The translations under genes and the position numbers were made by a program. From Candidatus Micrarchaeota archaeon (GTDB lineage Archaea; Micrarchaeota; Micrarchaeia; Anstonellales; Bilamarchaeaceae), in the NCBI GenBank assembly GCA_964434735.1, contig CAYSWK010000002.1:634-64633 (forward strand): a stretch of DNA of 64,000 bases. Direction: 5' to 3'. This document shows positions 24,267 to 61,119 of this stretch, piece by piece. The notes beneath the pieces are model-generated. The model was not told the DNA's origin. It did no database searches and saw nothing but the letters and a program-made list of their open reading frames with translations. Numbering within the stretch: position 1 is the stretch's first letter; each line of letters starts with the position of its first letter.

Positions 24267-24685
24267 CTGATCCGTGGAACGTTTTGAGAGTACCCCGGCA
24301 CAAGGGAATCATTTTCAGCATCGACAGCATCATAAGCCTACTCCTTTTCCTTATTGCGCTTGTCATCATCTCCGGTTCATTGGTTCCGAATACTCCTCGA
24401 ACTACGAGTATCAAGGATCTTGCATACGACATCCTCAGCGTACTGGATGCAAGCGATAGGTACGAACAATACATTGAAGGGGACTCAAGCGCAATTCGCG
24501 ACCTCCTCACCAATACCCCGTCAAACGTATGTATGGATATACAAATTACTGAATATTTAGGAAACACGAGCGTCGTAAGCAAGCCAAACTGCGGAGGATT
24601 TACGCGTGAACTCCAGTCTACGTACAGCTCATTCGCGTATGGCGGAAAATATTATACCGTGCAATTGTTAGGGTGGGAACGATGA
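24239..24685 (+). CDS. pilin-like protein
   Basis: RHKGIIFSIDSIISLLLFLIALVIISG (KG then hydrophobic helix); overlaps neighbours (operon). Confidence 0.4.
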   Translation: MGNHKGVEMTDPWNVLRVPRHKGIIFSIDSIISLLLFLIALVIISGSLVPNTPRTTSIKDLAYDILSVLDASDRYEQYIEGDSSAIRDLLTNTPSNVCMDIQITEYLGNTSVVSKPNCGGFTRELQSTYSSFAYGGKYYTVQLLGWER

Positions 24686-29359: not shown

Positions 29360-31066
29360 TTATACCAGCTTCTTTGCGCTCTGGTTCTTGCGGGCGGCCT
29401 CGATAACCTCATCGGGGGAAAGATAGTACTTCTTTATGATTTCACCGACCTGGTTGATGTCCTCAATCTTATTTTTCACCATCCATTCAAGAATGCCCTT
29501 TTTCTCCTTCTGGTCATCATAAATTTCCTTCTCAGTCATACCTGTGTGAAGGTTTATGTTTTCAATATAACGATGAGGAGGTTTTACCATTTGGAACTCG
29601 TCCTGCCTTGCACGCCAGACAAACACACGATTTATTTCCGGGCCGTTTGCGCCAGGTATAACTTCAGAAATTTCAAGCGTCCTTCTTAAGTTTCTTCTTC
29701 GGTCACGGAACTGCACCATGACCAAGTGGATGTCTTCAACTTCAGCAGGAGGGATTTCTATTGGAGGCTCAGTGAGACGCTTAAGCATCTGGCTTCCCGT
29801 ATCGGCGTGCATGGTCGCGTAAACTGAATGCCCCGTGTGCATTGCCTCGAACAGGACCTCGGCTTCGCGTTTTCTTCGCACTTCGCCCATGATAATGCGG
29901 TCAGGGCGCATACGTAATGCATTAACTACCAAGTCAAGCATCGAAACCTCACCCAAACCTTCAGAATTTGCCGCACGAGTTGCCATAGGAACCCAGTTCC
30001 ATTGATAATCTGGAAGAAGCAGTTCACGCGTATCCTCAATGGTTACAATACGCTGCTGAGGAGGGATAAGCGCCAATACACCGTTAAGTGCCGACGTCTT
30101 GCCGCTTGCGGTGCCTCCCCCTACGAGGACGTTTGCTTCATAATGTATTGCCTGCCATAAAAGCGCCGCCATATCGGTTGACATGGTTTTTTGCAAACCG
30201 ATCATGTGAATAATCGTCCAGGGGTTTCGCGCAAAAAGACGCAACGTAATCGTATTGCCTGCGGTTGAAATGGGAAACAACGTTGCATTGACACGGTCAC
30301 CAGTTTGAAGGTGCGCATCTAAAATAGGATTAAGAGTATTGATCTGCTTTCCGACCCTTCGAGCGATCTGTGCGGAATAATTCTCGATTTCATCCTCGTT
30401 TTCCGCCTTGAGGCTTGTCTGCATCCACCCCAATTTACGGTGGTACACTGCAAGCGTGTTCTTGCTTGAATTGGCAACGATTTCTTCAAGCCAATTATCT
30501 GCAATAAGCAAGTCCAATTTTCCAAGCCCGTACATGTCACGGAAAAGCCATGACGCGCATGCGCTCAATGCGTCCCCTTGCGCAAGCGGTTTAAGTGCAT
30601 CAAGGATTGTTGCAAATTTTTCCTTTTTTGAATCCTGACCCTTTCGTGCACGTTCCTCGTTTAAAATAGCAATTTGCTTTTTGAGCGAATTAAGGTAAAG
30701 TCTCGTATAGTATGAGATGCTTGGCAACTCAACAAAATAACGCTTTGCGCCTTCTGCCTCATACAGGTGCGCCTTGGCAACAGGGACACCTTCGTCTTTT
30801 ACATCATACGTATCGATTGCCTTGGTCTTTGCGGGCAAGGCGGAATCGTCCTCAACAGGCGGCTTGATATTACGTATAAAGGGGCGCGAAAAAAAATTAA
30901 GCGGATACACAAGTTCAAGTGCGCCTTCTTTTTCAAGCACACGCGCAATTGATTCAACAAGTGAAAAAGGAGTCTTGGTTTGCTTTGCAATGGCGACAAG
31001 CGTGATGCGCTTTTGCCCTTTACAGGCGGTTATAACTTCATCAACCTTGGTTTTGTAGTCTGCCAT
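29360..31066 (-). CDS. type IV filament assembly ATPase (FlaI/TadA family), second copy
   Basis: Walker A VLVGGGTASGKTSALNGVLALIPP, Walker B RIIMGEVRR, His box VYATMHAD; long N-terminal extension. Confidence 0.8.
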   Translation of the reverse strand: MADYKTKVDEVITACKGQKRITLVAIAKQTKTPFSLVESIARVLEKEGALELVYPLNFFSRPFIRNIKPPVEDDSALPAKTKAIDTYDVKDEGVPVAKAHLYEAEGAKRYFVELPSISYYTRLYLNSLKKQIAILNEERARKGQDSKKEKFATILDALKPLAQGDALSACASWLFRDMYGLGKLDLLIADNWLEEIVANSSKNTLAVYHRKLGWMQTSLKAENEDEIENYSAQIARRVGKQINTLNPILDAHLQTGDRVNATLFPISTAGNTITLRLFARNPWTIIHMIGLQKTMSTDMAALLWQAIHYEANVLVGGGTASGKTSALNGVLALIPPQQRIVTIEDTRELLLPDYQWNWVPMATRAANSEGLGEVSMLDLVVNALRMRPDRIIMGEVRRKREAEVLFEAMHTGHSVYATMHADTGSQMLKRLTEPPIEIPPAEVEDIHLVMVQFRDRRRNLRRTLEISEVIPGANGPEINRVFVWRARQDEFQMVKPPHRYIENINLHTGMTEKEIYDDQKEKKGILEWMVKNKIEDINQVGEIIKKYYLSPDEVIEAARKNQSAKKLV

Positions 31067-31727
31067 CGAATGTGCTTGCTGTTGTGATGTTTATATTTGT
31101 TACGCATTCTTGAAAATTAAAAAAATACAAGTCTGATTGCACTAGGTGTACAATAGCCAGCAATTTCAAAAAGAAATTGCAAGTTCAAGTTAACTTTGTT
31201 AACAGTCCTTTCATTTTTTATAAGCAAAAATGCAAGAGTAATTGAACTTCGTTCAAAACCCTTCCATTTTTGTGAGCAAAAATGCAAGAGGCAGGATATT
31301 CACTGTTTCCCGCACCCTGCAGTCTGCATCCAGAAATTACTGGAAACAGGTAACTGGCTGCTGGAAACTGATTTGAACCTGCGTAGTCACTAAGACACCA
31401 AACATCTCCGGCAATTTGACAACGTCAAAAAGCCTCCTGAATCTGGCACGTTTGACCGGGCTCCGCCACTCTTGCGTTTACTTATGTTTTCCGAATACAA
31501 CGTAGCGGCCTATTCCAAGAAAGTACTTAGAGTTGGCCTTGCTCGCACTTTCGTGCGAGAGCTTTTGCAAGAGCTTGGGTTCCGAAGGAACCTGGCGGGC
31601 ATTGACGCGCACGTCAACCAAACCGCCACTCTTGCGTGGTATTATGTTCTTCTTATGCAACATCCGTTGATTGAACATGCTACTCTTGCCTCGTTACTCT
31701 TATAAATATGACAAGTGAGAGAAACGC
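31067..31727. repeat. repeat-dense divergent intergenic region (7-mer GCAAGAG/CTCTTGC x6, tandem 30-mers, duplicated 14-mer ccgccactcttgcg)
   Basis: gcaagag at 31232, 31284, 31567; ctcttgc at 31469, 31629, 31684; tandem repeat tc(c/a)ttttt.t.agcaaaaatgcaagag at 31205-31237 and 31259-31290; ccgccactcttgcg at 31463-31476 and 31623-31636. Confidence 0.6.
31436..31476 (-). pseudogene. tRNA-like 5' segment (acceptor + D-arm + anticodon stem/loop of a tRNA-Leu-like sequence, anticodon CAG) without a contiguous 3' half
   Basis: minus strand GCAAGAG TG GCG GAGCCCGGTCAAA CGT G CCAGA TTCAGGA mirrors the 5' half of the tRNA-Leu at 48714-48839; a T-arm-like GCAGGTTCAAATC lies 54 nt further downstream on the same (minus) strand (plus coords 31370-31382) and a CTCTTGCA acceptor-3'-like element at 31283-31290. 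Confidence 0.35.
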
Positions 31728-32468
31728 ATGGCATCCCGTGATACAACTCCCGCATATGTACCAAAAACCATCGAAAGAATCAAAAGCGGAATTCCCGGAT
31801 TTGACCAATTGATCCAGGGGGGATTTGTAAATCATTCAACAACGCTTGTACGCGGTGGAACGGGAACGGGGAAAACCCTTTTTTGCCTCCAGTATTTATA
31901 CAAGGGAATACGTGAACATAATGAACCGGGCGTATTCATCTCATTTGCAGAAACTGAGGAAGAAATCATACAGCACGGCAACAGCTTTGGCTGGGATCTT
32001 GAAGAATTAATAAAAAAGAAACAATTTGCGATCATACAATATGCGCCGCACGAAATCGCCCACGTCATGGAAGAGGGGGGCGGAAGCGTCCGTGACACCA
32101 TCGAGTCCCTTGGCGCAAAACGCCTTGTCATCGATTCCATAACTGCATACTCACTTTTATTTGAAAATGAATACAAGGCAGATGAATCAATATTGGACCT
32201 CTTCCAGCTGCTCAAAAAATGGGGATGTACTTCATTAGTAACTTCAGAATATCCTGTATATGTGGATCAAAGCACCCCGGAAAGGCTTGGGTTTCTTACC
32301 GATGGAATACTTAACCTCTATTATTTTAGGGTAAACAACAAAAGAATACGTGGGCTTGAAGTGCTCAAAATGCGGGATACGCACCAGGAGAATACCATCC
32401 GTTCGATGGAAGTAAGTAAGACGGGAATTATAATTGGCAAACCGCTTTCATTAAGAGGTCAAGCATGA
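31728..32468 (+). CDS. FlaH/ArlH-like KaiC/RecA-superfamily ATPase
   Basis: GIPGFDQLIQGGFVNHSTTLVRGGTGTGKTLFCLQYLYKG Walker A in KaiC-like fold, ~246 aa, as in archaellum FlaH. Confidence 0.6.
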   Translation: MASRDTTPAYVPKTIERIKSGIPGFDQLIQGGFVNHSTTLVRGGTGTGKTLFCLQYLYKGIREHNEPGVFISFAETEEEIIQHGNSFGWDLEELIKKKQFAIIQYAPHEIAHVMEEGGGSVRDTIESLGAKRLVIDSITAYSLLFENEYKADESILDLFQLLKKWGCTSLVTSEYPVYVDQSTPERLGFLTDGILNLYYFRVNNKRIRGLEVLKMRDTHQENTIRSMEVSKTGIIIGKPLSLRGQA

Positions 32469-34489
32469 AAAAAGGACAAACCGCGGTTGAATTTCTTTTG
32501 ATATTTGCAGCCGTGCTTCTATTGGTGTTTATAGCAACCTCGGTAAACCGCGAACAAATTTCTACCATCAATACTCAAAAAATAAACACACAAGCGCAAA
32601 GCGCAGTTGAGGAAATTGCTGCGGCTTCCCAGCAAGTCTATGCACAAGGGGAAGGCGCAAAAAAAAGAATATTCATCATTGTCCCTGAAGGATATGATCC
32701 TGAAAGTTCTTCCCTTTCGAATCGGACGATTAAGATGAGGGTCCGTGAAACCGATTATACGTACGCAACGGATTTTGATATTTACGGATCAGTCCCACGG
32801 TACTACGGCGGCCAATGGCTCTGGGTTATCTCTGAAGGCACGTCAGTACGAATTAGCGATGCCCTCTTCAGGGTCGTTCCCGTTTCCATAAACAATATCA
32901 TGTCACAAAATGCAACCGACCAAGAAACGTTTACGGTTGAAAGCCTCTCAAACACGCCAATCAACGTCACGCTTGACCCTGTATGGAGCAATTCTGTCAG
33001 CCTGGATCTAAGCACTAATTCCTTTTCGCTCAATGCGTCAGAAACGCAAGTAGTTACTGTTACATTTGAATCCCCCGTGAACGCAATCGGCTTCCAATCA
33101 GGAAGCATTTTTGCACAAGCAACAAACGGAACAACAAATGACAGTCTTTCCCTTCCCATAACCATCGAAGTAGTCGGAACATACCAGGATAATTCGCCCG
33201 CACTTACGGTTGACCCTTCCATCTGGGAGGAGAGCCTCAATTTAAATGAAAGCAAAACGGCAACATTTACGGTGTGCACAAACACCGTTACAACTGTTCC
33301 TTCAGTCCAATTCATACCCTCTTCGGGAAACCCCGGGTCGTGGATAAGCGGCACAAGCGCACTTGGACCTTTGATTGAATCAGAATGCCAAGACAAGGAA
33401 CTTACCGTTACGGGCGCATCAAACGCAAGTTCAGGAATTTACATAGGATACATTAATGTGTCAGGAAGCGAAAATGCCTCGGACATCATTGTTACTATTA
33501 TGCAATTGACAGGGGCAAACGATTCACTAGGCCCCATTGTCACAGGGATCAGTTTAAGCGACTCAGATATCCTTGCAGGTGAAAACTTCAGCATCACCGC
33601 AACGGGCGATGATTCAACAACGGGCAATTCAAGCATTGCAAGCTGCGAAATACAAATGAACGGCGGTAGCTGGCAAGCTATGGAAGCACAGGACGGAAAT
33701 TATAATGAAGTGAGTGAAGGAGTCGAACTTAGTTTCATCATGAACACTGCTTCAAGCAACACTGCAGGAATCAGGTGCACGGATACAGCTGGAAATACCG
33801 GCAGCATATATGAGTATGAATTCAGTATAATGAAAAATATCCTCTTCATACGAAAAACGAGCGCAACTCAAACCTCCGAAGAACAATGGATGACGTTCCT
33901 TAATACGTACGTTTCCGGCCTGGGGTATTCCTGGGATTATGACGATTATGAAGAAGCGGACCTTGATGGAGATCTTGAAACAATCGAACTTTACAAAGTA
34001 GTTATTATGTCAGAATGGCAGCACCCGTCTGCAGTTGAAAATGAACTTGAAGACTATATGCAAGCGGGCGGAAGAGTTATCCATTTTGGGGGCGCACTGC
34101 AGCATGGAGTTGCAGATCTTGGGTTTGCATCAGGAAACTATAACCCTACTACTGAACGAAGAATATACGTCCATGAGGATTTGGCACACTACGTAACAAG
34201 CGGATTTTCATACGGCAGTATCCAGGTCCTTTCAAGCAATGACCAAATGTACCGCGGAGCAAACGGCGATTTCATAAGCGGAAGAGCCTCAGGGCAAGGG
34301 TACTACTTTATTTCACTCTCAAGCGGACAAACCGGATACCAGCATGAAACAATAGGAAGCGAGGCATTACGCGGGTCTGGAGGTTATTGGTGCTGGGGAG
34401 TTACGCGTCCGGACAAATTGAATTCAAACGGGCGAACGTTCGTAACCCGCATTATAGACTGGAGCATCCAGCAATCACAAATAGAATAA
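32465..34489 (+). CDS. giant pilin-like surface protein (674 aa) with class III signal peptide
   Basis: MKKGQTAVEFLLIFAAVLLLVFIATSV (KG-Q, E at +5) overlapping FlaH-like stop; Thr/Ser/Asn-rich body with many N-x-S/T sequons. Confidence 0.55.
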   Translation: MKKGQTAVEFLLIFAAVLLLVFIATSVNREQISTINTQKINTQAQSAVEEIAAASQQVYAQGEGAKKRIFIIVPEGYDPESSSLSNRTIKMRVRETDYTYATDFDIYGSVPRYYGGQWLWVISEGTSVRISDALFRVVPVSINNIMSQNATDQETFTVESLSNTPINVTLDPVWSNSVSLDLSTNSFSLNASETQVVTVTFESPVNAIGFQSGSIFAQATNGTTNDSLSLPITIEVVGTYQDNSPALTVDPSIWEESLNLNESKTATFTVCTNTVTTVPSVQFIPSSGNPGSWISGTSALGPLIESECQDKELTVTGASNASSGIYIGYINVSGSENASDIIVTIMQLTGANDSLGPIVTGISLSDSDILAGENFSITATGDDSTTGNSSIASCEIQMNGGSWQAMEAQDGNYNEVSEGVELSFIMNTASSNTAGIRCTDTAGNTGSIYEYEFSIMKNILFIRKTSATQTSEEQWMTFLNTYVSGLGYSWDYDDYEEADLDGDLETIELYKVVIMSEWQHPSAVENELEDYMQAGGRVIHFGGALQHGVADLGFASGNYNPTTERRIYVHEDLAHYVTSGFSYGSIQVLSSNDQMYRGANGDFISGRASGQGYYFISLSSGQTGYQHETIGSEALRGSGGYWCWGVTRPDKLNSNGRTFVTRIIDWSIQQSQIE

Positions 34490-34494
34490 AAAAA

Positions 34495-36243
34495 TTAGCG
34501 GGCAATTGCCTTTTTCTGACAATCGAATGGAAGACGTTTACACGTCGTAGTACCTCGAATGCAGGCACTTTTGCCTGATATGATAAGGGTCTTGCTCGCA
34601 CCGAATCTTCCAAGAACAGCATTAAGGTTTGCATCCGTGCACGTTTTCCCTGCAAGGGATTCTTTGGGCTTTGGTTTTTCCTTAACAGTTTTTATGGCTT
34701 TAGCGAGTGTAGGCACGGAAATAGAAACGGGCGGCGGTGCCACGGTTCCTGCATCTGGTTTTGCAGGAAGCACTTGTGCATCAACTTGTCGAGGCATTTC
34801 CGTAGGAACCTCCTTAGCAACATGCGTGCCTGAATCAACCGTAACAACAACGGGAGTTAAAACTGGGATAACCACTTCGTTCTTTGAAGAACGTAAAGAA
34901 CTAATTCCTAACCCTATTACCGTTCCAAGTAAAACAACTCCTGCAACAAGGCCTACGTTTACAAGCGTATTTTGAGGTTGAGGCTTTGCATGGAAAATTA
35001 AGGGTTCGCCTAAAACAATATTCGCTAAATTGCCTGCATTTACCAAAGCAATACGTAATTGAGCTAATTCACTTGCAGTTTTTTTACCATTCAGACCTAA
35101 AAAGCCGTAAGTAAGTTCGCTAAGTGCCTTATTGCCTTTTCCTACAAAATCGATAGCGATAGTATTATCGTCATTATTTTGCGAAATTGCAACGTATGAT
35201 ACATTTCGTGCTTCAAGAACTCCTGAACGATTAAGCACGTCATAAAGTTTTTGTTCGCACCTCTTTTTTTGCCGTTGTCGCCTCATACCTTTTGCAATTG
35301 CTCTCTGATCGATAGTAAGTCCAAGCTCTGCGTCAAGCGCTGCATCAAGTGAGACGTGCACACCAATCGAATCGCGATCTAAAATTTTACTTTGTTTTTT
35401 ATTTAATTCTTTAATCTCCGCTTCTTTTTCTTTCGATGAAAGAACAGCGTTTGATGAGATTTCCGCTTTCTTTTGATCAAAATATGCGTTAACTTTTTGA
35501 CGAAGTTCTTCCTCATTCATGGAAAATAATTCCCCAAGACGATTCTGATATGCGTACTCTTGTTGAAAAAATGCGCGCATTTGATAGATAGAAACTTTTT
35601 TTTGCGAAGAAACAGGTATTGTTTCCAAAATTTCATAAGCAGCATCGAGAACCGCTTCAGCAAATACCTCATCAACTTTATTTGAGACTAATTTAAGAAC
35701 GGTTATTGCTGCCCGTTTTTTTTCACTCAAAGATGATGAATCAGACGTCATGATTTCATATAGTGCATCGACATACTCCTTGTTTGTAAGTACTGGAGTA
35801 AAATCAACTGATACAATGGGAACATCGGGATCTTCAATACCGTCTCCGTCCTCAGTATCGAAACCGGCAGGCAAATCAGAGGTACGTAGAACTAATGCAG
35901 GCTGCCCGAAAGTAAGCGTCTTTGCATTTTCATCTGCAGGTCCGAAAAGCGGATCTACAGTTCCACCAATAAGCTCGACCGCGTCATCATCAACTTCGTG
36001 TTCAGGATCTGGAATGGTAGGTTGCGCATCAAGTGATAATTCAGGTACATCCTTACCTGGAACTGGCAACGACTCACTGAGAACTGACTGCTGGGAACCG
36101 GAAACCGGCTGCTGTGCACTGGGTGCTGACTGCTCGGTACCTGATGCCGGCTGCCCGGTGCTGGCTGCACCCGGAGTAACCTTAGGCTTAGGGGGCACTT
36201 CCCCGAAAGGATCATCTTCAAGGTCTGATTGAGCTATTGCCAT
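34495..36243 (-). CDS. ORFan membrane protein, paralog A (582 aa): acidic N-terminal domain, single TM, C-terminal 4-Cys module
   Basis: N-term MAIAQSDLEDDPFGEVPPKPKV and C-term KTCTDANLNAVLGRFGASKTLIISGKSACIRGTTTCKRLPFDCQKKAIAR shared with 36322-39258; TM VGLVAGVVLLGTVIGLGISSL. Confidence 0.6.
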   Translation of the reverse strand: MAIAQSDLEDDPFGEVPPKPKVTPGAASTGQPASGTEQSAPSAQQPVSGSQQSVLSESLPVPGKDVPELSLDAQPTIPDPEHEVDDDAVELIGGTVDPLFGPADENAKTLTFGQPALVLRTSDLPAGFDTEDGDGIEDPDVPIVSVDFTPVLTNKEYVDALYEIMTSDSSSLSEKKRAAITVLKLVSNKVDEVFAEAVLDAAYEILETIPVSSQKKVSIYQMRAFFQQEYAYQNRLGELFSMNEEELRQKVNAYFDQKKAEISSNAVLSSKEKEAEIKELNKKQSKILDRDSIGVHVSLDAALDAELGLTIDQRAIAKGMRRQRQKKRCEQKLYDVLNRSGVLEARNVSYVAISQNNDDNTIAIDFVGKGNKALSELTYGFLGLNGKKTASELAQLRIALVNAGNLANIVLGEPLIFHAKPQPQNTLVNVGLVAGVVLLGTVIGLGISSLRSSKNEVVIPVLTPVVVTVDSGTHVAKEVPTEMPRQVDAQVLPAKPDAGTVAPPPVSISVPTLAKAIKTVKEKPKPKESLAGKTCTDANLNAVLGRFGASKTLIISGKSACIRGTTTCKRLPFDCQKKAIAR

Positions 36244-36290
36244 CGGATTACCTGTTATATATTATGGTATTTCGTATATTTAAACATATG
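36244..36290 (-). promoter_or_regulatory. TATA-box promoter of paralog A (duplicated block)
   Basis: coding-strand tttaaatatacgaaataccataatatataacaggtaatccgATG; near-identical 45-nt block at 39259-39305. Confidence 0.55.
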
Positions 36291-36321
36291 CATAACTCGT
36301 AATTTAGGAAAAAAATAAAAA

Positions 36322-39258
36322 TTAGCGGGCAATTACCTGTCTTGGGCAACTAAACGGGAGACGTTTACACGTCGTAGTACCTCGAATACATGCGTTTTTG
36401 TCTAATACCATGAGGGTCTTGCCCGCACCGAATCCTCCAAGGGCGCGATTAAGATTTGCATCAGTACACGTTTTCCCTGCAAGGGGTTCTTCGGGCTTTG
36501 GTTTTTCCACAACCGATTTTACGACCTTTTTAGGAGCAGGTTTAGATGAATCTTCATCACATTTTGATGAATCAAGCCTAACTCGTTTTGCAAGTTCTGC
36601 CACCTCATAATTGTCAGCCATGTTTCCCTTAGGACACGTTTCATCAATGAGTTTTTTGATAACGCGTTTTGCGCCTTCAGTATCTTTTGCTTCAAGGTAC
36701 TTTTCAGCTGCAGTGAACATATTTCCCGCGTTTTCTGCTTTTTTTGCAGCCGTTAAAACAGGATCTTCTTTTATTCCTGCATCCGCAGAACCGGAAACTG
36801 GAGACTGAGAATCCGCAACGGGTCGCGAGGAGTCTATTGCTACTCCCGCATCACGTACGGATGCATCTTGCGCTTGACGCACTTGTTGAACTGCTGCAAC
36901 TGCTTGCTCTTGTTGTGAAGATTCATTGTTTCCAAAATACTTGACCACTCCAATCACAAGACTTGCTGCAAGCGCAAGGCCAGAAAGCACGGCAAGCGGG
37001 CCAGTCAATGATATTTTTGGTTTTTGGCGAGGGCGCGACCCCATGCGCTCTGCAAGCTCCCTGAATTCCAAAGCGTCAATTTCAACATCAGAACTTTCGC
37101 CCATCCGCTGCGCAAGCCTTCTTTGACTGTCATCGGTAACAACCTCAAGTACCCGTTTATTCGCAGCATCGACAACTGCGTATCGTTCACGATCGGTATC
37201 AACTCGTACGACCCGTACTCGCCGGGTTCCTTCCGATAGGGAACTTGCCGCATCTCGAAGCGGCCTGACAGGAACTTCTTCATCGCCAATTTGTGCAACG
37301 TGCGCGTCCTTTTCTTCAAACAACCGTTTAACCTGGGCACGCATTTCAGGATATTCTTCACCAAATAAATCCTCAAAATATCGATTCATTATTCTAAGAA
37401 CTGCAAGCGGGAAGGTTTCAGGATTGAACTTTGGTAAAAGTGCAGCACGAATGAATGCTTTTTGAACAGAAATTGGAAGATCGCCCCCTTCAACAAATGA
37501 ACTGAATAAAGGGTCTCGTTCGCTCTTCCTCCATGAAGCAAGTTGAGTGAATACGGTTTCAGGAACCAAAACGGCTGCTTCTGTAGGTTGCCCTGAACCA
37601 ACAAGATAGGTATAAACTTCACCTTCAATGGCCGCATTAAGAACATCATCACCAAAGGATGAGGCTGATAACTTTTCAAGAACCGCCCTGCCGAACCTCA
37701 CGCGAATGTCGTTTGCCTCACCTTTCAAACCTTCAGAAACAAGGTTCGCGATTTTAACGCCCATGTAATGAAGAAGCTGCGTTTGCTCATCTGATGAAAG
37801 CTGTGTGGGAGCCGTATCTGATGAAAGCGTTCTAGGAGCAAGATAGATGCTCCTAAAAGACTCAATCAAATGATCTACGATAGTTTCAAGTTCTTCTGGA
37901 GTTCTTTGTACATGCGAAATTCGTTGTGAAACACGTAAATCAACCTCACTTTTTGCAAGTCTAAGGTAAGAAGAGTCTCGATTTACTAAAAGCCGTGAAG
38001 CATCAACGGCTTCTGGTCTTAAATCAAGAATAGCAGAAATTGTTGCACCCAATGTGGTTGGATCGGCAACCCTACGAAGTGCAATCAGCTGCTCGCTGGA
38101 AAGGGCTTCAAGAAGATTATCTTTTAAAGGATGCGACTGCAATCCGTCTGCAACCCCCATCTGCTCTTCACCGGTCAGATGTAAAAGTACATCAACAAGA
38201 AATGCGGCATTGCGCGTAGTCTGGAATTGCTCAAGTGCAAGAATAAGTTCAGGAGAAACAGTAAGGCCAGAAGGAAGTTCAAGACCCAATGAAACGGCCA
38301 GCCTGATGGGAGTGCGTGCCATCAAAGGCGACGTCGTTTGAGGCGGCTCAGGGATAGGACGTTTTACGGTTGTTGCATCATCACGTGGGGGTGCCCGTGC
38401 AGCAGGAACAGTCTCGGCGGTTGGACTGACTGCCCGAGGGTTAGTAGGTTCGCCATCAAGTTCAACATCATCCCATTCAAGGGTTTGCGTCCCCTCGTGT
38501 GATGGAAATGCAGCGATATCATCTTCATCTGCAGGTTCTATCCCATCACCGTCAGCATCAACTTCCAGAATAGGAGTTACACCTGTAACTTCCGACCTGC
38601 TGGGTTCACGGCCTGCAAGTGCATCCGCCAGTTCATCTTGAGGCAAAGATACAATGACATTAGGAGCTTCATCGCTTGCGCCCTCAGGAATGCTATGAGT
38701 GGAAGTCGTTGCGCGTGGATCATTGCCATATTCGATAGTATCTGCTCTGGAAGCTGCGGGAGCTTCGACTGCAGCGGGTTCTTCTTCATCATTAAAATCA
38801 AATGGATTTCTTGCAAGTCCGACTGATGATTCTGATACTACTAATATAGGTTGTCCTCGAACAAGCGTCTTTGCATTTTGATCAGCAGGTCCGGAAGATG
38901 GAGTATGCTCACCACCAACAACATGTTCATCTGCTTCGTGTTCAAGACCTTCATCTGTTTCTCCTAAAACCTGACTGGGGGTTACGGGTAAAGTGCTTTG
39001 AGAAGGAAGTGGGGCAGATGCCGGTGTTTTAACTGAAGAACTTTCAGAATCATCTATGTCAGTACGTTGCGCATCAAGTAATGGTTCAGGTGCATCCTTA
39101 CCAGGAACTGACAACGGGGAATCGGAAACCGGCTGCACTGTGTCCGATGCTGAAACGGGTGCTTGAGCTACAGGCTTAGCTGCTGCGCGGGTAACTTTAG
39201 GCTTAGGGGGTACTTCCCCGAAAAGATCATCTTCAAGTTCTGAGTTTTTTATTGCCAT
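36322..39258 (-). CDS. ORFan membrane protein, paralog B (978 aa)
   Basis: N-term MAIKNSELEDDLFGEVPPKPKV; TM LAVLSGLALAASLVIGVVKYF; C-term KTCTDANLNRALGGFGAGKTLMVLDKNACIRGTTTCKRLPFSCPRQVIAR; 3' coding DNA ~85% identical to paralog A. Confidence 0.6.
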   Translation of the reverse strand: MAIKNSELEDDLFGEVPPKPKVTRAAAKPVAQAPVSASDTVQPVSDSPLSVPGKDAPEPLLDAQRTDIDDSESSSVKTPASAPLPSQSTLPVTPSQVLGETDEGLEHEADEHVVGGEHTPSSGPADQNAKTLVRGQPILVVSESSVGLARNPFDFNDEEEPAAVEAPAASRADTIEYGNDPRATTSTHSIPEGASDEAPNVIVSLPQDELADALAGREPSRSEVTGVTPILEVDADGDGIEPADEDDIAAFPSHEGTQTLEWDDVELDGEPTNPRAVSPTAETVPAARAPPRDDATTVKRPIPEPPQTTSPLMARTPIRLAVSLGLELPSGLTVSPELILALEQFQTTRNAAFLVDVLLHLTGEEQMGVADGLQSHPLKDNLLEALSSEQLIALRRVADPTTLGATISAILDLRPEAVDASRLLVNRDSSYLRLAKSEVDLRVSQRISHVQRTPEELETIVDHLIESFRSIYLAPRTLSSDTAPTQLSSDEQTQLLHYMGVKIANLVSEGLKGEANDIRVRFGRAVLEKLSASSFGDDVLNAAIEGEVYTYLVGSGQPTEAAVLVPETVFTQLASWRKSERDPLFSSFVEGGDLPISVQKAFIRAALLPKFNPETFPLAVLRIMNRYFEDLFGEEYPEMRAQVKRLFEEKDAHVAQIGDEEVPVRPLRDAASSLSEGTRRVRVVRVDTDRERYAVVDAANKRVLEVVTDDSQRRLAQRMGESSDVEIDALEFRELAERMGSRPRQKPKISLTGPLAVLSGLALAASLVIGVVKYFGNNESSQQEQAVAAVQQVRQAQDASVRDAGVAIDSSRPVADSQSPVSGSADAGIKEDPVLTAAKKAENAGNMFTAAEKYLEAKDTEGAKRVIKKLIDETCPKGNMADNYEVAELAKRVRLDSSKCDEDSSKPAPKKVVKSVVEKPKPEEPLAGKTCTDANLNRALGGFGAGKTLMVLDKNACIRGTTTCKRLPFSCPRQVIAR

Positions 39259-39305
39259 CGGATTACCTGTTATATATTATGGTATTTCGTATATTTAAAT
39301 ACATG
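39259..39305 (-). promoter_or_regulatory. TATA-box promoter of paralog B (duplicate of 36244-36290)
   Basis: cggattacctgttatatattatggtatttcgtatatttaaa block identical to that upstream of paralog A. Confidence 0.55.
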
Positions 39306-39306
39306 T

Positions 39307-42300
39307 TTACATCTTTGCTTTAAGACCTAACTTTTCCCTAAGCGCAGACACGTCCGTACGATGTGGCGCTGCTGGAAGCGATCCTTGGTCTGCACAAGAT
39401 ACGCTAAAGCCCTTGGCTGTTGCGCTTGATTTGAATTTATCAAGAAGCTTTTGCCAGGTTGTGTCTCCCTCCTGTGCCTTAACGTCTTTGCATGCGCCAA
39501 GCTGTTCCTTAAGCGCTACTGCTACTTTCTGTCCCGGGGTAGGCGTAATGTCGGGCGTGTTCTCTACATAATATTTAGTTTCTGCGGGTCCGAGTCGTTC
39601 AAGTGCATTCAACGCATTAACAACTGCCCGTGAATCATCGGTACCGTCGTTTGGTGTTGCACCATTGAAAAGTGCAAGGAGACCATTAACTAAAACTGAC
39701 CGTGAAGGAGGCGTAGGATTAAGAATCGAAGAAAGTCTTGCTTCCACATAAGAACTGAATTCAGCGTACCAATCTTGAGAATCAAATAACGGAGGTGCTG
39801 CATTTACTGCGGTTTTTTGAACTTTAGTTCCGGTAAACCGTGAAACGAAAAAGTCAACTCGTGCTTCGTTTGAAGACAATTCCCGTATCATATCTGCAAG
39901 TACGCTTGGTCCATCACGTTCATACGTGCTTGTCGTAACTTTCCAGAATACGCGCGTGTCCTTATGAGTTTCAAGTGTTCCAATTGTGTTTGGGCTTTCC
40001 GCCACAATCGTATCGTAAAGAAGAACGTGTGCACGTGCAAACATCTCTTCAAAAGTATCCTTAGGTAACCTGTTGATCGAACGAACTGCTTCGCGGTATC
40101 CTTCTATGTCCCAGACACCATCAATGTTTCGTGAACGTCCCCGTACAATTGCATCTTCAGGAATGTTCACATCGGGTGCTTTGCCAGCAGCAAGCATTTC
40201 GGATGTTGGTGGAACCGTGGCAGTAGTTGCCCCCTCTTGAAGCATCCACTCTGCGTGTGCAACTTCTATCCTGCCCCACAAGACGCCCCTGCGATGCCTT
40301 TGAATTTCAGGAACAATGCCTGATGCCTCACGAGTTACTTGTTCGTATAATTCCGAATCATACCTTGCAAATTCTGCCGATCCAATAGCGTGGGGATTGC
40401 TTGTAATTCTATCAAACACCATCTCAACCGTCCATGGTACGAGTGTACGGTCAATCGGAGTAAGCATTGGTGCAATTTCCCCGCGTACTGCCTCTGATGC
40501 ACGTTCAAGTGCACCTTCAAGCCATGCCGGTTTTGGACCGTGCAATTCCGACGTGTTAGTTACGAGTAAATCAAAAACTTCCTGACCCCAGGTGGTACGA
40601 ATCGTATCAAGCATTGATACGTATTTCTCATAAGGTGCACGATCGAGTTGGTCTGACTTTTCAAGCACAACCTGCATGAAAAAATCCCTACGTGCTGCTA
40701 CAAACGCTTTTACCTGAGCAGGGTTAGGTGATGCTGGCTCGCAATCACGTACTTCTGAGATAGAAGTGCATGCGAGTAATTGTGTTTGATAAACAGATGC
40801 CCAGTAGATAGTAACTACCTCTTCGATTCGTTGCCATTGCATTGCTGCATTAGCGTTCTTTTTGATTTCGACTACGGCGTCTGGTGATTTACTAAAATCC
40901 CCATATACTTCCCGTTCGTAACGTGTTACGTGATTTGAACCGCGGGGATTCGGGTTTTCACGCATAGCTCGAAGGAAGGAACCAACAGAATATGCTGAAA
41001 TGGAAGGTGGAATATACTCTGGTTCTTCAGGTGCTGGAGCAACAGATCCTTGTCCACCTGTTACGGCAACTGAACGAAGTGCTTCTGCACGTGCACGATC
41101 ACGATCCGCATCATGATTTCCCGGATGGATCGCTTCTCTATCGACACGTTGCGCGGCTGCAGAGGCGCGGTTTGCAACTTCACGTTCCCGATCTAATCGT
41201 TCAAACTCGGCCTGTTCGAAGGGTGAAAGATCATCTCCGCCAGAACGGGATGCTGAAGGCTTAGGGCTAAAAGATGCCCGTGCAGGTTGTGGTGCAAGAG
41301 GTTGCGGCAATTCACGTGGAGTAGACGTACCTGCGGGACCCCGTCCAGGAACAGTATCTCCTAAAATAGGTCTTTCGGGTGCACCAGGTGCTACTGAACC
41401 ATCTCCATGGCGTGGAGGGATCAGAACAGGAATTACTCCGGGACGCGCCGTAGCATGAAGTGGTGAACGTGGTGCGGGTTGAGGCGATGGAAGACCGCCA
41501 AGAAGGCCTTGCTGCGTAGAACCATCTGCACTGACATCTGCAGAAGAAATCACAAGTTTTGGCATTTCACTTCTTCGTGTAACCGGTGCACCTTCAGATG
41601 CGATTCCTTCACCAAGAAGCGCGCTTGGAACCGATGCTCCGGGTGATTGGGAAAGGTTAATGCCTCGTTCTTCTGCAACGACACGTACCGTTTCACGAAT
41701 AGGGTTCCAGTTTTCAGCTGAATCCGCTTCAATCTGGCGAAGAACAGATTCGGGCGATTGTGCAAGAATGGTTCGAACGTTCGGCAGGAACTGTGCATCG
41801 TTTGCAAGCAATGCTGCCGCATTTGTTCCTATAGATGGGTCAACGGCTCCAGGAGAATTACGAATTCGCTGTGCAGTGAAACGTCCAACTGATAAAACAC
41901 GAAGTGCTTCAAGTGCTTCACCTTCATCAAGAGAATTTCCGGCACGTGCCTTTGCAAGAGTAAGAAGAATATTTGAGGCCGGTTGATGTACAAGTTCCGG
42001 CTCAGGACCTTCTTCAACTACAGCTACGGGTTGCGCAGTACCGTTTGCTCGGTCTACAGGTTGCAATAAAGCAAGTGCGCCTGCATCAAATTCAAATGCA
42101 CGAGAATCATCAACACGAATGACAGCTTCTGCAATCGCATCGCTAGCAGCAGATTCAGGTGAAAGTACCGCATCGGGCGTTCCAACTACTATAGGTCCCG
42201 TAGGACGCTCGGGTTTTTCAGATGATTCTGGCGCTTCTGCTGGAGAAGCTACTACAGGAGGAAGCCCCACATCTTCACCAAGATCCGCAAAAGAAGTTTC

Positions 42301-42759
42301 ACTAGAACCAAACGGAGATTCGCTTTGAGGAGTTTCATTGACAAATATCTCTAAAGGATCATCCTCAGCTACTGCACTTGCGCGTGCCGCTTTTGCGCCT
42401 GGAGTAAGTGGGCCATCATATTCGTCACCAACATCTGGAATCTCCTCATCCGCAGTCATTTGTGCAATTTTCTTAAGATCTTTCTCGACACTCTCTCTTG
42501 TAAGTGGCGGAGGTTCAACTCCGGCAGGCGGAGGCGTTAATGGTGATTTTTGTGGAGATGCAACAGGTGGTGCTGCGGGTTCCGCTTGAACTTCAGGTGC
42601 TTCTTGAGCAGCTTCAACAACAGGTGCAGGAACTTCCGCTTGAGCTACAACTGGCGCAAGGGTTTGCGCGACTGCCTTTTTTGCCTTCATTCTTTCAAGA
42701 AGTGCCCTTGCCTTTTCCGCTGCGGTTTGTGCGTTTGTTGGTTCTGCCATAAACATCAT
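39307..42759 (-). CDS. ORFan protein (1150 aa) with Pro/Ala-rich low-complexity N-terminus
   Basis: uninterrupted 3.45-kb ORF; N-terminal AEKARALLERMKAKKAVAQTLAPVVAQAEVPAPVVEAAQEAPEVQAEPAAPPVASP; no recognisable catalytic motif; 9 nt downstream of 42769-44139 (operon). Confidence 0.55.
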   Translation of the reverse strand: MMFMAEPTNAQTAAEKARALLERMKAKKAVAQTLAPVVAQAEVPAPVVEAAQEAPEVQAEPAAPPVASPQKSPLTPPPAGVEPPPLTRESVEKDLKKIAQMTADEEIPDVGDEYDGPLTPGAKAARASAVAEDDPLEIFVNETPQSESPFGSSETSFADLGEDVGLPPVVASPAEAPESSEKPERPTGPIVVGTPDAVLSPESAASDAIAEAVIRVDDSRAFEFDAGALALLQPVDRANGTAQPVAVVEEGPEPELVHQPASNILLTLAKARAGNSLDEGEALEALRVLSVGRFTAQRIRNSPGAVDPSIGTNAAALLANDAQFLPNVRTILAQSPESVLRQIEADSAENWNPIRETVRVVAEERGINLSQSPGASVPSALLGEGIASEGAPVTRRSEMPKLVISSADVSADGSTQQGLLGGLPSPQPAPRSPLHATARPGVIPVLIPPRHGDGSVAPGAPERPILGDTVPGRGPAGTSTPRELPQPLAPQPARASFSPKPSASRSGGDDLSPFEQAEFERLDREREVANRASAAAQRVDREAIHPGNHDADRDRARAEALRSVAVTGGQGSVAPAPEEPEYIPPSISAYSVGSFLRAMRENPNPRGSNHVTRYEREVYGDFSKSPDAVVEIKKNANAAMQWQRIEEVVTIYWASVYQTQLLACTSISEVRDCEPASPNPAQVKAFVAARRDFFMQVVLEKSDQLDRAPYEKYVSMLDTIRTTWGQEVFDLLVTNTSELHGPKPAWLEGALERASEAVRGEIAPMLTPIDRTLVPWTVEMVFDRITSNPHAIGSAEFARYDSELYEQVTREASGIVPEIQRHRRGVLWGRIEVAHAEWMLQEGATTATVPPTSEMLAAGKAPDVNIPEDAIVRGRSRNIDGVWDIEGYREAVRSINRLPKDTFEEMFARAHVLLYDTIVAESPNTIGTLETHKDTRVFWKVTTSTYERDGPSVLADMIRELSSNEARVDFFVSRFTGTKVQKTAVNAAPPLFDSQDWYAEFSSYVEARLSSILNPTPPSRSVLVNGLLALFNGATPNDGTDDSRAVVNALNALERLGPAETKYYVENTPDITPTPGQKVAVALKEQLGACKDVKAQEGDTTWQKLLDKFKSSATAKGFSVSCADQGSLPAAPHRTDVSALREKLGLKAKM

Positions 42760-42768
42760 CTATTGAAA

Positions 42769-44139
42769 TTATGCTTCAGTCTCAAGTACCTGAGCGATTG
42801 CGTTGACCGTCTCAAGCAATTCGATTACACTTACATCGGTTGACCCGTTTGAATTTGCCTTAATTTCTGCAATTATTGCGCGTGCGCCTGCAGGATCAGA
42901 GTCAACCAATTCCGTAAGCTGCTCAACTGCCCGTGCAAGATCATATGCTTTTTCAGCAGGTGTTTCAACCTCTGCTGGTGCGCGAGCTCCTAACTCTTCT
43001 GGTTCTTCTTCTACAGCTTCTGGCCCTACCCTGACAGGCGCAACAGGTGCCAATACTTTCGATTCGGCTTCTTCAACAGAAACCTCGCCAGGTGCGGATT
43101 TAGGAGTTAGTGAATTCCCCCAAATTCCCGCAATATCGATAATGCCATCATCATCTTCACGTGTAAGTCTGGATACGACGGGAACCGAGTCGCCTGACAA
43201 CTCATCAAGATCAAAAAGAACAATGTCATCGTCGCGTGCATTAACCTGAGGTTGTGAATAATCAATTGCCGCATTAAGGCTTTTCAAAAACTCTCCTACG
43301 CCCGTTGCCAATGCAACATGCGCTTGTGCAACAGAATTGATTTGTGTAAACAACGCCGTTGCAGAAGAAACGTACTCATCAACTGAATGAAGGAACGCAT
43401 TGATCCGTTCAATCGATTCATTCATTGCACTAAGTTGTGTGCCGACTTCACCTGTTTTGTACGTGCCACGTGCAGAATCAAAAACAGAAGTAAATTCTCC
43501 AAGTACTTCACGAAGGCACGAAGCATGCGCCTCATAGGTTAAAATGATGTTGAATGTTCTGCCTGTTTGCCCTTCCATTGAAACCCGAGCCAAGTCTCCA
43601 GCTGCAAGTCCAATCGAACCGTTACGCAAAGTTTCAGCAGTATTAATAAATCGTGCAAGAGGCTCTTTTGCCAAATCAAGCATGCCAAAAAATGCTTCAA
43701 GATTTTCCTGGGGAGTTGAAATATCGCCTACAAGCCGAGACGTGCCTTCCATAAGAGAAAGCCTGTTTGCATCCATTGCTAAAAGTGCCTCAGTCACAGG
43801 AGCAAACGAACCTTTCAAAAGACGGTTGGAAACGTCAGCTGAAACCTCATTTAAAACCAGGTCAAGCGCCTCAACTTGCGCATAAAAAGGAAGAAGAGGC
43901 GCAAAATCCTCACCCAACGCCCTCTTGATAGGGGCAACAAGTTCTGAAAATAAAGCAACGCCCTCAAGCTTTGGGCGGGCATCAAGCCCTTCGGTTGAAA
44001 CAGAAGAAGGGAATACTCGATCCCTATGTAAAACGAACGCATCCCGTGCACGGGCAGCTTCTGCCGTAACGGTTTGCTGGTATCTGAGGACTTTGCCATA
44101 CTCGGATCGTGCGTGTGCGAGACTCATAGTATCAACCAA
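42769..44139 (-). CDS. ORFan acidic protein (456 aa)
   Basis: first gene of the four-gene same-strand block; Asp/Glu-rich C-terminal third; no motif recognised. Confidence 0.5.
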   Translation of the reverse strand: MVDTMSLAHARSEYGKVLRYQQTVTAEAARARDAFVLHRDRVFPSSVSTEGLDARPKLEGVALFSELVAPIKRALGEDFAPLLPFYAQVEALDLVLNEVSADVSNRLLKGSFAPVTEALLAMDANRLSLMEGTSRLVGDISTPQENLEAFFGMLDLAKEPLARFINTAETLRNGSIGLAAGDLARVSMEGQTGRTFNIILTYEAHASCLREVLGEFTSVFDSARGTYKTGEVGTQLSAMNESIERINAFLHSVDEYVSSATALFTQINSVAQAHVALATGVGEFLKSLNAAIDYSQPQVNARDDDIVLFDLDELSGDSVPVVSRLTREDDDGIIDIAGIWGNSLTPKSAPGEVSVEEAESKVLAPVAPVRVGPEAVEEEPEELGARAPAEVETPAEKAYDLARAVEQLTELVDSDPAGARAIIAEIKANSNGSTDVSVIELLETVNAIAQVLETEA

Positions 44140-44300
44140 TAATTATTAGTTATGGATATTTGTGTATAAACATCTATTTAAATGTTTGTACAAGAGACAA
44201 GAAGTGGTTTTGCTAGAACTAGGCCCTCCCTCTCTCTCATAAAAATGAATGTATAAAAGCGTTTAAAAGTGTGTGTCTCTGGGCTAAAAATGAGTAGGGG

Positions 44301-44774
44301 TTATCTCCCGATTCCAATATTCCCATGATTGCGGACAACAATGGTCCGAAGATGGTATGCCTGGAGCCTGCGCTTAAGGTCGATATCGTTCGTTGCAACA
44401 AACGCACGGTGCGCTGCTGCATATTCAACAATCCAGTCATCGGCATTCTTAAGCGTTTTTTCATACTTAATATTTTTTGAATGAATTTCGATGAGTTTAA
44501 GCCCAAACCTGGCAGCAATCCCGTTCTTACTCGGGCGCTTTGCAAGCCGTGTGAGTTCCCTTTTGATAGGTGTTGAAATGACGAAAATATGCGCCTCGTT
44601 AAGCAATCGCTCAATGCTTGCAAAAATATCCATCTTGAACTGTACGGGTACAAGCCAAAAATTAGTATCTATGATGACAAGCTTGCGTGCGCCCGTCTCT
44701 CCTTCAAACCATTGCGTCTTTTCCACATAAAAAAGATGCCTCAAAGGGCTTTTAATAAGAGCTGTCGCAATCAA
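44301..44774 (-). CDS. PIN-domain protein
   Basis: KLVIIDTNFWLVPVQF ... VATNDIDLKRRL: acidic residues in PIN-like positions. Confidence 0.45.
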   Translation of the reverse strand: MIATALIKSPLRHLFYVEKTQWFEGETGARKLVIIDTNFWLVPVQFKMDIFASIERLLNEAHIFVISTPIKRELTRLAKRPSKNGIAARFGLKLIEIHSKNIKYEKTLKNADDWIVEYAAAHRAFVATNDIDLKRRLQAYHLRTIVVRNHGNIGIGR

Positions 44775-44777
44775 ACC

Positions 44778-45725
44778 ATGCGTGCATTATACCGTGGTGA
44801 GGAATTCGACCCCAATTTCTATTATTACTCCCAGGTAGATATCGATCATTCCTGGTACCTTGAAAGCAAAGGCGAACGGATACTTCTCACCTCAGAAATG
44901 AACAAGGAGCGTGCACATGAGGAATTCAAGGGAAAAATTATTACCTACAAAACGCGCGCTGAAATTGAAAAAATATTCAAGGGAAAAACGATAGAAGTTG
45001 ATTTGCAATCCTTAAGCGCGTCAACATATCTTGCACTTTCAAAATGGGGCAAAGTAAAAGACGTTTCAAAAGAACTTGAAAACCAACGAAGAGTCAAAAC
45101 GCAAACAGAACAAAAAATAATAAAAAAGGCAGCGATTGTATCTCAAAAAATCCTTGACAAGCTGGACCCGTTCCAATTCAAAACGGAAAAAGAAGTCCAC
45201 AACTGGCTTTTGATGGAAACGCTTAAGGTTGGGGCAAAACCTGCGTATGATCCGATTGTTGCTGCCGACAAAAATTCTCGTTTCCCGCATTACCATGCGC
45301 AAGATACGCCGATAAAGGATTGGGTGCTTATAGATTATGCCGTTGCGATAGACTATTATGCAAGCGATTTGACCCGATGCTATTCACGTAAAGAACGCTC
45401 AAAGGAACAGGAAAGCTATGAAACGATGAAAAGAATTTTCAACGAACTAGTGGACACAATCCCTTCCTGCAAGACGGGGGCAGAACTTGCGGAAATACAA
45501 GAACAAGTATATAGAAAGCACAAGCTGCCCCCCCTTATCCATTCAGTAGGCCACGGAGTAGGCCTTGAAGTGCATGAACTCCCACGATTATCAAAGCGGT
45601 TCAACGACCCATTGGCAGGCTCAATACTTGCGATCGAACCTGCAACATACACCAAACAATTTGGCGTACGCTTTGAAAATACGCTATACGTCGGCAAAAC
45701 AATTGAGATATACGCAACCAACTAA
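44778..45725 (+). CDS. M24-family metallopeptidase (Xaa-Pro dipeptidase/aminopeptidase-like)
   Basis: pita-bread fold motifs IDYAVAIDYYASDLTR, HSVGHGVGLEVHELP, ILAIEP; start moved to ATG 44778 (MRALYRG). Confidence 0.75.
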   Translation: MRALYRGEEFDPNFYYYSQVDIDHSWYLESKGERILLTSEMNKERAHEEFKGKIITYKTRAEIEKIFKGKTIEVDLQSLSASTYLALSKWGKVKDVSKELENQRRVKTQTEQKIIKKAAIVSQKILDKLDPFQFKTEKEVHNWLLMETLKVGAKPAYDPIVAADKNSRFPHYHAQDTPIKDWVLIDYAVAIDYYASDLTRCYSRKERSKEQESYETMKRIFNELVDTIPSCKTGAELAEIQEQVYRKHKLPPLIHSVGHGVGLEVHELPRLSKRFNDPLAGSILAIEPATYTKQFGVRFENTLYVGKTIEIYATN

Positions 45726-49060: not shown

Positions 49061-49243
49061 CCAATATGGCACAGGATATAAAAATCAGACGCTGTTGACG
49101 TCATCACGAGGAATGCGGGCATTGTAGGAATGTATCCCGCAACCTTCAGCGGTTGTTCAGGTCATCATGTAAAAAGTATTACGCAGCCGAACTTTAAAAA
49201 ACAATCAGATACGTTTTTATATAGAATTAGACACAATAATACC

Positions 49244-61090: not shown

Positions 61091-61119
61091 TTAAAACATG
61101 TTTATTACCTATTCGATTT

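Follow-up and report, generated by a model that had tools for sequence, protein, structure and literature searches.

Four large orphan genes beside a type IV pilus-like locus in a Micrarchaeota-like archaeon: a possible envelope module

Results

Organisation of the four-gene block

The subject of this analysis is a block of four large genes on the minus strand (positions 34495-44139) of a 64-kb stretch of archaeal DNA, hereafter the window, taken from a 103-kb NCBI contig. Four intact open reading frames (ORFs), named genes A to D in the direction of transcription (Table 1), lie head to tail in the block, without any frameshift or internal stop, and genes A and B are separated by 9 nt. A preliminary description of this DNA had placed four large ORFs on one strand at these positions and had given the same 9-nt gap; both statements were reproduced, with a correction at the start of the first gene. 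Translation of gene A most likely begins at ATG 44127, giving 452 aa, rather than at TTG 44139. The public gene call (P0006) has this same length, and the ATG follows closely on a Shine-Dalgarno-like site (GGTTGAT).

The block is organised as three transcription units, consisting of genes A and B, gene C, and gene D. The exact TATA box octamer TTTAAATA occurs five times in the 64-kb window, and three of the five occurrences precede these units. Ahead of genes C and D the octamer forms part of a 50-nt element, TTTAAATATACGAAATACCATAATATATAACAGGTAATCCGATGGCAATA, composed of the TATA box, a spacer, the Shine-Dalgarno-like sequence AGGTAATCC, the ATG and two further codons. The element has two matches in the window, where none would be expected by chance, and both stand ahead of genes C and D. 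Identical TATA promoters had been reported earlier for the last two genes, and the identity proved to be even longer, extending over 50 nt through the third codon. A promoter-motif search of the window returned only this pair, the element being absent from the genes of the neighbouring pilus-like locus. A motif downstream of the TATA box, apparently common to the promoters of gene A and of genes C and D, was tentative and did not hold up on testing.

Table 1 Coordinates of the four genes and of the features within and around them.
Feature	Position	Strand	Remarks
Gene A	42769-44127	-	452 aa; ORF extends to TTG 44139 (456 aa)
Gene B	39307-42759	-	1150 aa
Gene C	36322-39258	-	978 aa
Gene D	34495-36243	-	582 aa
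TATA box TTTAAATA ahead of genes A and B (first transcription unit)	44175-44182	-	47 nt upstream of ATG 44127
50-nt element, promoter and 5' untranslated region (UTR) of gene C	39250-39299	-	100% identical to 36235-36284
50-nt element, second copy, promoter, 5'UTR and start of gene D	36235-36284	-	exact match of the gene C copy
Oligo-T tract TTTTTATTTTTTT	36305-36321	-	directly after the gene C stop; archaeal-type terminator
Oligo-T tract	34476-34494	-	after the gene D stop; 5 nt from the convergent 674-aa pilin-like gene, whose 3' end it runs into
Transmembrane (TM) helix of gene C, residues 749-776	36931-37014	-	Kyte-Doolittle 19-residue window maximum 2.29; RPRQKPK just before
TM helix of gene D, residues 425-451	34891-34971	-	Kyte-Doolittle maximum 2.35
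C-terminal module of gene C, residues 905-978	36325-36546	-	four conserved Cys
C-terminal four-Cys module of gene D, residues 509-582	34498-34719	-	aligned to the gene C module
54-nt tandem duplication in the Pro/Ala/Glu-rich region of gene B	42542-42649	-	70% identity; repeat family D8
Internal repeat of gene B, copy 1, residues 582-646	40822-41016	-	motif NPxxxGSxxxxRYxxExY...EI...WxRIE
Internal repeat of gene B, copy 2, residues 768-832	40264-40458	-	pairs with residues 582-646

The block genes show strong period-3 composition, with G+C fractions of 0.59-0.66, 0.40-0.50 and 0.30-0.34 at the first, second and third codon positions (GC1, GC2 and GC3). The DNA of the block has 43-49% G+C. Its raised G+C is due to the first two codon positions and so reflects the amino acids encoded. 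Genes C and D can be aligned at their ends, where synonymous divergence (dS) is about 0.43, and so unsaturated, and the ratio of nonsynonymous to synonymous divergence (dN/dS, or omega) is 0.35-0.46, which implies purifying, if relaxed, selection on these ends; for the C-terminal modules the values are 0.44-0.52 and 0.35-0.39, respectively.

The Logan short-read assemblies SRR32910794 and SRR32910799 encode a 582-aa protein without any change and a 978-aa protein that differs by a single substitution, and these copies, identical or one residue apart, are uninformative as population variation for dN/dS. Logan contigs (contig L002 of SRR32910794 and the 3025-bp contig L008) stop 21 nt upstream of the start codons of the 582-aa and 978-aa genes, inside the 50-nt repeat. 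Because the short-read assemblies break in this repeat, the 1150-978-582 gene order is provided by the 103-kb contig alone.

The length of the ORFs, their period-3 composition, the dN/dS values, the TATA boxes, Shine-Dalgarno-like sites and oligo-T terminators, and the independent assemblies together indicate that the four ORFs are real protein genes. An alternative is that they are non-functional, either spurious or decaying pseudogenes. The absence of homologs and two structure predictions of low confidence, described below, would fit this explanation; however, four uninterrupted ORFs of 452-1150 codons in DNA of 43-49% G+C without frameshifts, the codon-position asymmetry, the omega values at the C and D ends, and a perfectly conserved promoter and 5'UTR together with terminators make it highly improbable.

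Genes C and D encode mosaic membrane proteins

The gene C protein is bitopic, with an N-terminal peptide, an acidic disordered region (residues ~14-318), a helical region (~320-745), a TM helix, and a tail of ~200 aa that ends in a four-Cys module. No Cys occurs in the 748 residues before the TM helix, and the four conserved Cys are found only in the module that follows it. The gene D protein repeats this architecture, with a post-TM part of ~130 aa and a central helical domain (residues 146-424) that is not homologous to that of gene C.

The C-terminal module common to both proteins comprises 74 aa at 68% identity. It consists of a Lys/Pro/Glu spacer (EKPKPxE; EKPKPKE / EKPKPEEP) followed by LAGKTCTDANLN...ACIRGTTTCKRLPFxC...IAR, with the four Cys conserved. 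The proteins also share an N-terminal 24-aa peptide, MAIxxSxLEDDxFGEVPPKPKVT, and a few more patches within the first ~140 residues, while their central 280-430 aa are unalignable (z = 0.8). The preliminary description had presented the two as paralogs, each with one TM helix followed by a C-terminal four-Cys module. The helix and the module were recovered in both, and the ends are homologous, but homology does not extend over the whole length. No further paralogs of genes C and D were found in the window by tblastn, and no similarity among the four block proteins was detected beyond the C and D ends (all z < 1.4).

Given a dS of only about 0.43 at the ends and the unalignable middles, a simple whole-gene duplication cannot explain the pair. 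The sequences would be accounted for if the ends had been grafted onto different cores, or if only the ends had been kept alike by selection or gene conversion. At the promoters, the neighbouring synonymous sites have diverged by ~33% while the 50-nt promoter-to-start tract remains 100% identical; a perfect promoter tract beside diverged coding sequence is better explained by selection acting on the regulatory element than by a very recent gene conversion.

An N-terminal hydrophobic segment is absent from all four block proteins. The basic sequence RPRQKPK before the TM helix, together with the lack of a signal peptide, suggests an N-in/C-out topology for the 978-aa protein, and the same orientation is predicted for the 582-aa protein.

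Genes A and B encode acidic proteins without membrane segments

Neither the gene A nor the gene B protein has a TM helix or a signal peptide. The gene A protein is acidic (73 Asp and Glu against 36 Lys and Arg), and the secondary structure of an AlphaFold2 single-sequence model of low confidence (pLDDT 45.6) outlines an all-helical part (residues 1-290), an acidic disordered linker (~291-389) and a small three-helix C-terminal domain. The gene B protein is soluble and acidic, with Pro/Ala/Glu-rich disordered stretches at residues 36-198 and 402-516, the first of them in keeping with the Pro/Ala/Glu-rich low-complexity N terminus noted earlier for the 1150-aa protein. Its C-terminal half (residues 576-1150; pLDDT 35.0 in an AlphaFold2 single-sequence model) is helical and Trp-containing. 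The two copies of its internal repeat (Table 1) align with a score of 65, which none of 300 shuffles reached (mean 26.8 ± 4.8; z about 8).

On a disorder-propensity scale calibrated on the conserved proteins of the same window, ~28% of the block residues fall into the top 2.5%. Proline makes up 6.5-9.2% of the products of genes B, C and D and 4.2% of that of gene A, compared with 3.8% in the conserved window proteins. PxxP-rich linkers had been described earlier, but PxxP counts equal those of shuffled sequences and do not exceed the expectation from the high proline content, so a specific PxxP motif was rejected.

Database searches return no known family

Searches of Pfam and NCBIfam with the four whole proteins gave no family match above noise, and eight domain-sized pieces gave only noise in Pfam. 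PHROGs profiles likewise yielded only noise (E ≥ 0.04), and PADLOC defence models nothing at E ≤ 0.1. PDB sequence searches with each of the proteins and with a profile built from the Cys module returned nothing below E = 0.039, the value obtained for the NemR repressor with the 582-aa protein, which is a weakest-of-noise value and not a real match. In a word-indexed HMMER search of 5.8 billion proteins, each query found only itself, apart from C and D finding each other. The 1150-aa protein was also used in an exhaustive phmmer search against 1.84 billion representatives, drawn from clusters that together comprise about 15 billion proteins, and again found only itself, the 452-, 978- and 582-aa proteins being covered by the less sensitive word-indexed search. 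A JGI metagenome scan with the Cys module, four IMG/VR scans, and tblastn searches against GenBank phages and PLSDB plasmids were all empty. The statement in the preliminary description that none of the four proteins carries a recognisable domain agrees with these searches.

Families associated with archaeal surface structures were equally silent. No class III signal peptide and no PF04021 match was found in the block proteins (the 674-aa neighbour matches PF04021 at 2.6e-7), and archaellum and pilus accessory families in Pfam and NCBIfam (FlaX/ArlX, ArlC/D/E, ArlF/G, FlaH, FlaI, FlaJ) gave nothing above noise. TonB_C was not matched by whole proteins or by separate domains in Pfam. Of the two elements of a surface layer (S-layer)-like plan, an N-terminal secretion signal and a C-terminal TM anchor, the 978- and 582-aa proteins have the TM helix only, and the 452- and 1150-aa proteins have neither.

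The block proteins are formally new at the family level, nothing known matching them, and homology assigns them no function. Their orphan status is partly a sampling effect, since with no close sequenced relative and thin sampling, orphans are expected among fast-evolving disordered proteins. In DPANN genomes a large share of the genes are orphans, and the block is typical of such genomic dark matter in an under-sampled lineage.

Third-position composition offers a further view of this status. The GC3 of the block lies below that of all 20 conserved window genes tested (0.37-0.48). Window ORFs without a clear Pfam family (for example 14877-16418, 19550-20689, 49130-50332 and 54837-56924) mostly have a GC3 of ~0.30-0.34 where tested; an exception is the 616-aa ORF at 61069-62919, with 0.43. 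The split separates poorly conserved from conserved window genes and is not specific to the block, and the low GC3 could result from expression level, relaxed selection or foreign origin.

The last of these causes would fit the proposal that a mobile element (an integrated virus, a plasmid or the like), now degraded, brought in the block as its cargo, which would encode for example entry, attachment or exclusion proteins. Its orphan status and absence from relatives, its GC3 relative to the conserved genes, and its strong, duplicated consensus promoters are in keeping with this proposal. However, the window contains no tRNA, no att-like direct repeat flanks the block, no integrase or capsid/replication gene is present, the viral, plasmid and defence searches (PHROGs, PADLOC, IMG/VR, GenBank phages and PLSDB) were without matches, unlinked Pfam-less ORFs of the window have an equally low GC3, and the flanks are ordinary housekeeping genes, so that we regard a mobile origin as decidedly unlikely.

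Host lineage and the adjoining pilus-like locus

The window is archaeal by content, with FEN1, NurA, class III signal peptides and TATA promoters. The best matches of the pilus ATPase beside the block were found in metagenome-assembled genomes (MAGs) of Candidatus Micrarchaeota, at 49% and 44% identity over the full length, and its identity to Bilamarchaeaceae ATPases is 32-34%. All MAGs with matching ATPases belong to DPANN (kingdom Nanobdellati, phylum Microcaldota). The KaiC-like neighbour, used as a query against GTDB species representatives and JGI metagenomes, retrieved nothing, and so no close relative there. The host is a Micrarchaeota-like DPANN archaeon without a close sequenced relative.

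As the preliminary description had stated, the block is situated between a type IV filament assembly locus and a PIN-domain gene. The pilus-like locus comprises pilin-like genes (23118-25476), two T2SSF genes, a T2SSE ATPase gene (29360-31066), a KaiC/FlaH-like ATPase gene (31728-32468) and a gene for a 674-aa protein with a class III signal peptide; the other flank is a PIN_9 gene (44301-44774, minus strand). Relative to the KaiC-pilin operon the block is convergently oriented, and it has its own promoters; both points argue against filament association. A scan with an alignment of two ATPases of the window identified four Micrarchaeota loci, in none of which the block was present. In two of these, L004 and L007, the core consists of a giant adhesin (Laminin_G_3 or DUF2341), an ATPase and two T2SSF genes, and the flanks are housekeeping genes, for example ThrRS, ArgG, TIM, CDC48 and topoisomerase.

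It is conceivable that the four proteins are accessory parts of the adjoining type IV pilus machine, forming a stator or alignment complex or serving as partners of the KaiC/FlaH-like ATPase in a role like that of FlaX or ArlCDE, with the N-terminal peptide docking on the ATPase or KaiC ring. The block adjoins the locus, with 5 nt between it and the stop codon for the 674-aa pilin-like protein, and archaeal type IV pilus (T4P) neighbourhoods hold extremely fast-evolving, lineage-specific, Cys-containing large accessory proteins, as well as KaiC-like ATPases with unidentified α-helical partners (PMC4858521). Nevertheless, the orientation is convergent, the block has promoters of its own that do not recur at the pilus genes, the orthologous L004 and L007 loci have housekeeping flanks and no detectable relative of the block, no Pfam archaellum or pilus accessory family is matched, and none of the four proteins has a class III signal peptide; a pilus accessory role is therefore unlikely. 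A check proposed in the preliminary description, co-occurrence of the four genes in related genomes, came out negative at the orthologous pilus loci of these two Micrarchaeota MAGs. With the block absent there and convergently oriented in the window, adjacency is left as the sole evidence for a filament role. Of the envelope- or filament-associated module suggested earlier, the envelope part remains plausible for genes C and D, which have a TM helix and a Cys module that is probably outside, whereas the filament part is left without support by the orientation, the unshared promoters and the absence from L004 and L007.

Makarova, Koonin and Albers (2016; PMC4858521) reported Thermoproteales T4P loci with two large proteins, one having a C-terminal TM segment, as well as DUF2341/PilY-like adhesins. 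The block proteins are like such proteins in lying beside an ATPase/TadC/KaiC-like/pilin locus, in their large size, conserved Cys and extreme divergence, and, for two of them, in a near-C-terminal TM helix. They differ in having neither a signal peptide or class III signal nor DUF2341 or Laminin_G, and in not being conserved with the locus. The Laminin_G_3 and DUF2341 giants of L004 and L007 correspond to the 674-aa pilin-like gene and to none of the block genes. FlaX (ArlX) and ArlC/D/E are likewise helical or coiled and link an ATPase complex of the FlaI/FlaH type with the membrane or with other systems, but the block proteins match neither FlaC_arch, Arch_fla_DE nor related families in Pfam and differ in size and architecture, and the locus is of the pilus type, not an archaellum.

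The giant protein of L004 (728-4591) has 1287 aa and Laminin_G_3, that of L007 (1955-4174) has 739 aa and DUF2341, and both precede the pilus ATPase and show PilY-like adhesin features. The 674-aa pilin-like protein of the window contains neither domain, so even the adhesin at its pilus locus is highly diverged. The small genes at 23118-25476 encode class-III-signal-like N termini (...TRGQMWSTDF..., ...KKGFFYSVMM...) with weak DUF7287 and ComGE matches and are probably minor pilins of the same locus.

Interpretation of the block as an envelope module

The explanation we favour, tentatively and at less than even probability, is that the block encodes a non-enzymatic envelope module restricted to this Micrarchaeota-like DPANN lineage, acting as a scaffold or in surface contact. 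In the gene C and D proteins the N-terminal parts, which are large, acidic and partly disordered, would stay in the cytoplasm, and the C-terminal 130-200 aa would cross the membrane. There, a Pro/Lys-rich stalk would carry a small, probably disulfide-stabilised knob into the pseudo-periplasm or to the S-layer, where it could bind a surface partner belonging to the cell's own envelope or S-layer, a pilus or a host cell. On the inner side, the common N-terminal peptide and the disordered acidic tails may serve as docking sites, for which the soluble, acidic 452- and 1150-aa proteins would be the likeliest cytoplasmic partners, yielding a membrane-tethered scaffold. The variable middles of the two proteins could represent two versions of one interchangeable connector. 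No catalytic activity is predicted, as no enzyme family was matched in any library. Cultivated members of the phylum live attached to host archaea (PMC11329633, PMC5498576), a lifestyle with which such a module would be compatible, and the fast-evolving, Cys-containing accessory proteins of archaeal T4P neighbourhoods (PMC4858521) provide a precedent.

Several points weigh against this explanation. We infer the outside placement of the C and D modules, the disulfides, the interactions and the biological role, and each functional step is drawn from composition and topology. Neither AlphaFold2 model reached a usable confidence. The charges around the gene D TM helix are ambiguous, and the tail behind the TM helix is strongly basic (in the 582-aa protein, +11 over its final 130 aa), which would be compatible with a cytoplasmic metal-binding tail too. 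The 452- and 1150-aa proteins are tied to genes C and D only by adjacency, strand and the same TATA octamer, and phmmer searches with the four proteins found no relative at the L004 and L007 pilus loci.

The block may instead be a lineage-specific scaffold of the cytoplasm or membrane, such as a division, chromosome or cytoskeleton tether, unrelated to surface or host contact and beside the pilus locus by coincidence. Long disordered linkers rich in Pro are used in this way by ZipA, FtsK-linker and PopZ-type proteins. The bulk of the protein mass, namely the entire 452- and 1150-aa proteins and 75% of C and D, is predicted to be cytoplasmic, acidic, helical and disordered, and the relatives show no synteny with pilus loci. 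Against this, the most conserved segment is the four-Cys module after the TM helix, which points to an important extracytoplasmic interaction, and no division or cytoskeletal family shows any likeness to the proteins; we consider an internal scaffold somewhat unlikely.

A more ambitious version of the envelope module would be a so far undescribed envelope-spanning contact apparatus, in which interchangeable single-pass connectors, alike in their inner docking peptide and outer disulfide knob but with swappable middles, couple a cytoplasmic scaffold of disordered acidic proteins to the symbiont surface, a pilus or the host. Its parts would be candidates for the DPANN-side structures observed where cells contact their hosts, a proposal that we put forward as doubtful, no more probable than a pilus accessory role.

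Relation to other envelope systems and significance

By analogy only, the gene C and D proteins recall bitopic connectors of the TonB and ZipA type, which have a single TM helix, a long Pro/Lys/Glu spacer and a small terminal interaction domain away from the membrane. In C and D, however, the order is reversed, with the TM helix near the C terminus and the large part cytoplasmic; TonB_C and ZipA_C are absent, and the host, an archaeon, lacks an outer membrane. Nanoarchaeota contain diversified membrane proteins (PMC6142677), and unidentified docking structures have been reported in the envelope of Microcaldus ARM-1 (PMC11329633). The block shares with DPANN surface and host-interaction proteins a DPANN host, an orphan or fast-diversifying character, membrane association and paralog variation. 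Those proteins are mostly ectoproteins with a signal peptide and adhesin, protease or lectin domains, of which the four block proteins have none. Since they lack a signal peptide, the bulk of each block protein cannot lie outside in the manner of an S-layer-like protein or an adhesin.

If the block is indeed an envelope or host-contact module, its proteins would become candidates for components of the attachment machinery on the DPANN side, none of which, to our knowledge, has so far been identified in Micrarchaeota. Genes C and D are also a clear natural case, in a reduced genome, of genes assembled from modules. The practical value of the block is as a target list for metaproteomics or cryo-electron tomography of the source community, rather than as a demonstrated new system.

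Other features of the window

Elsewhere in the window (11365-14237) lies a second, separate pair of a T2SSE ATPase (443 aa) and a T2SSF protein (519 aa), which puts at least two filament-like systems of type IV into the genome, no more than 20 kb apart. The divergent T2SSE ATPase and KaiC-like genes are separated by a gene-free spacer of 660 nt (31067-31727), which contains several perfect hairpins and two internal direct repeats (31463-31501 and 31623-31661; 31207-31238 and 31259-31290). The tested stretch 31280-31720 folds far better than shuffled sequences (z = -4.4 on the plus and -4.8 on the minus strand). Rfam gave no real match, and a public gene caller placed a 73-aa ORF in the spacer. 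The spacer could be a structured RNA or a regulatory region of the pilus operons.

At the other flank of the block, the maximal ORFs of the PIN_9 gene (44301-44774, minus strand) and of an M24 peptidase gene (44589-45725, plus strand) have 186 nt in common at their 5' ends. Pfam matches PIN_9 only from residue 33 of its maximal ORF onwards, so translation of the PIN gene may in fact begin further downstream, in which case the two genes would be divergent with a very short common promoter region.

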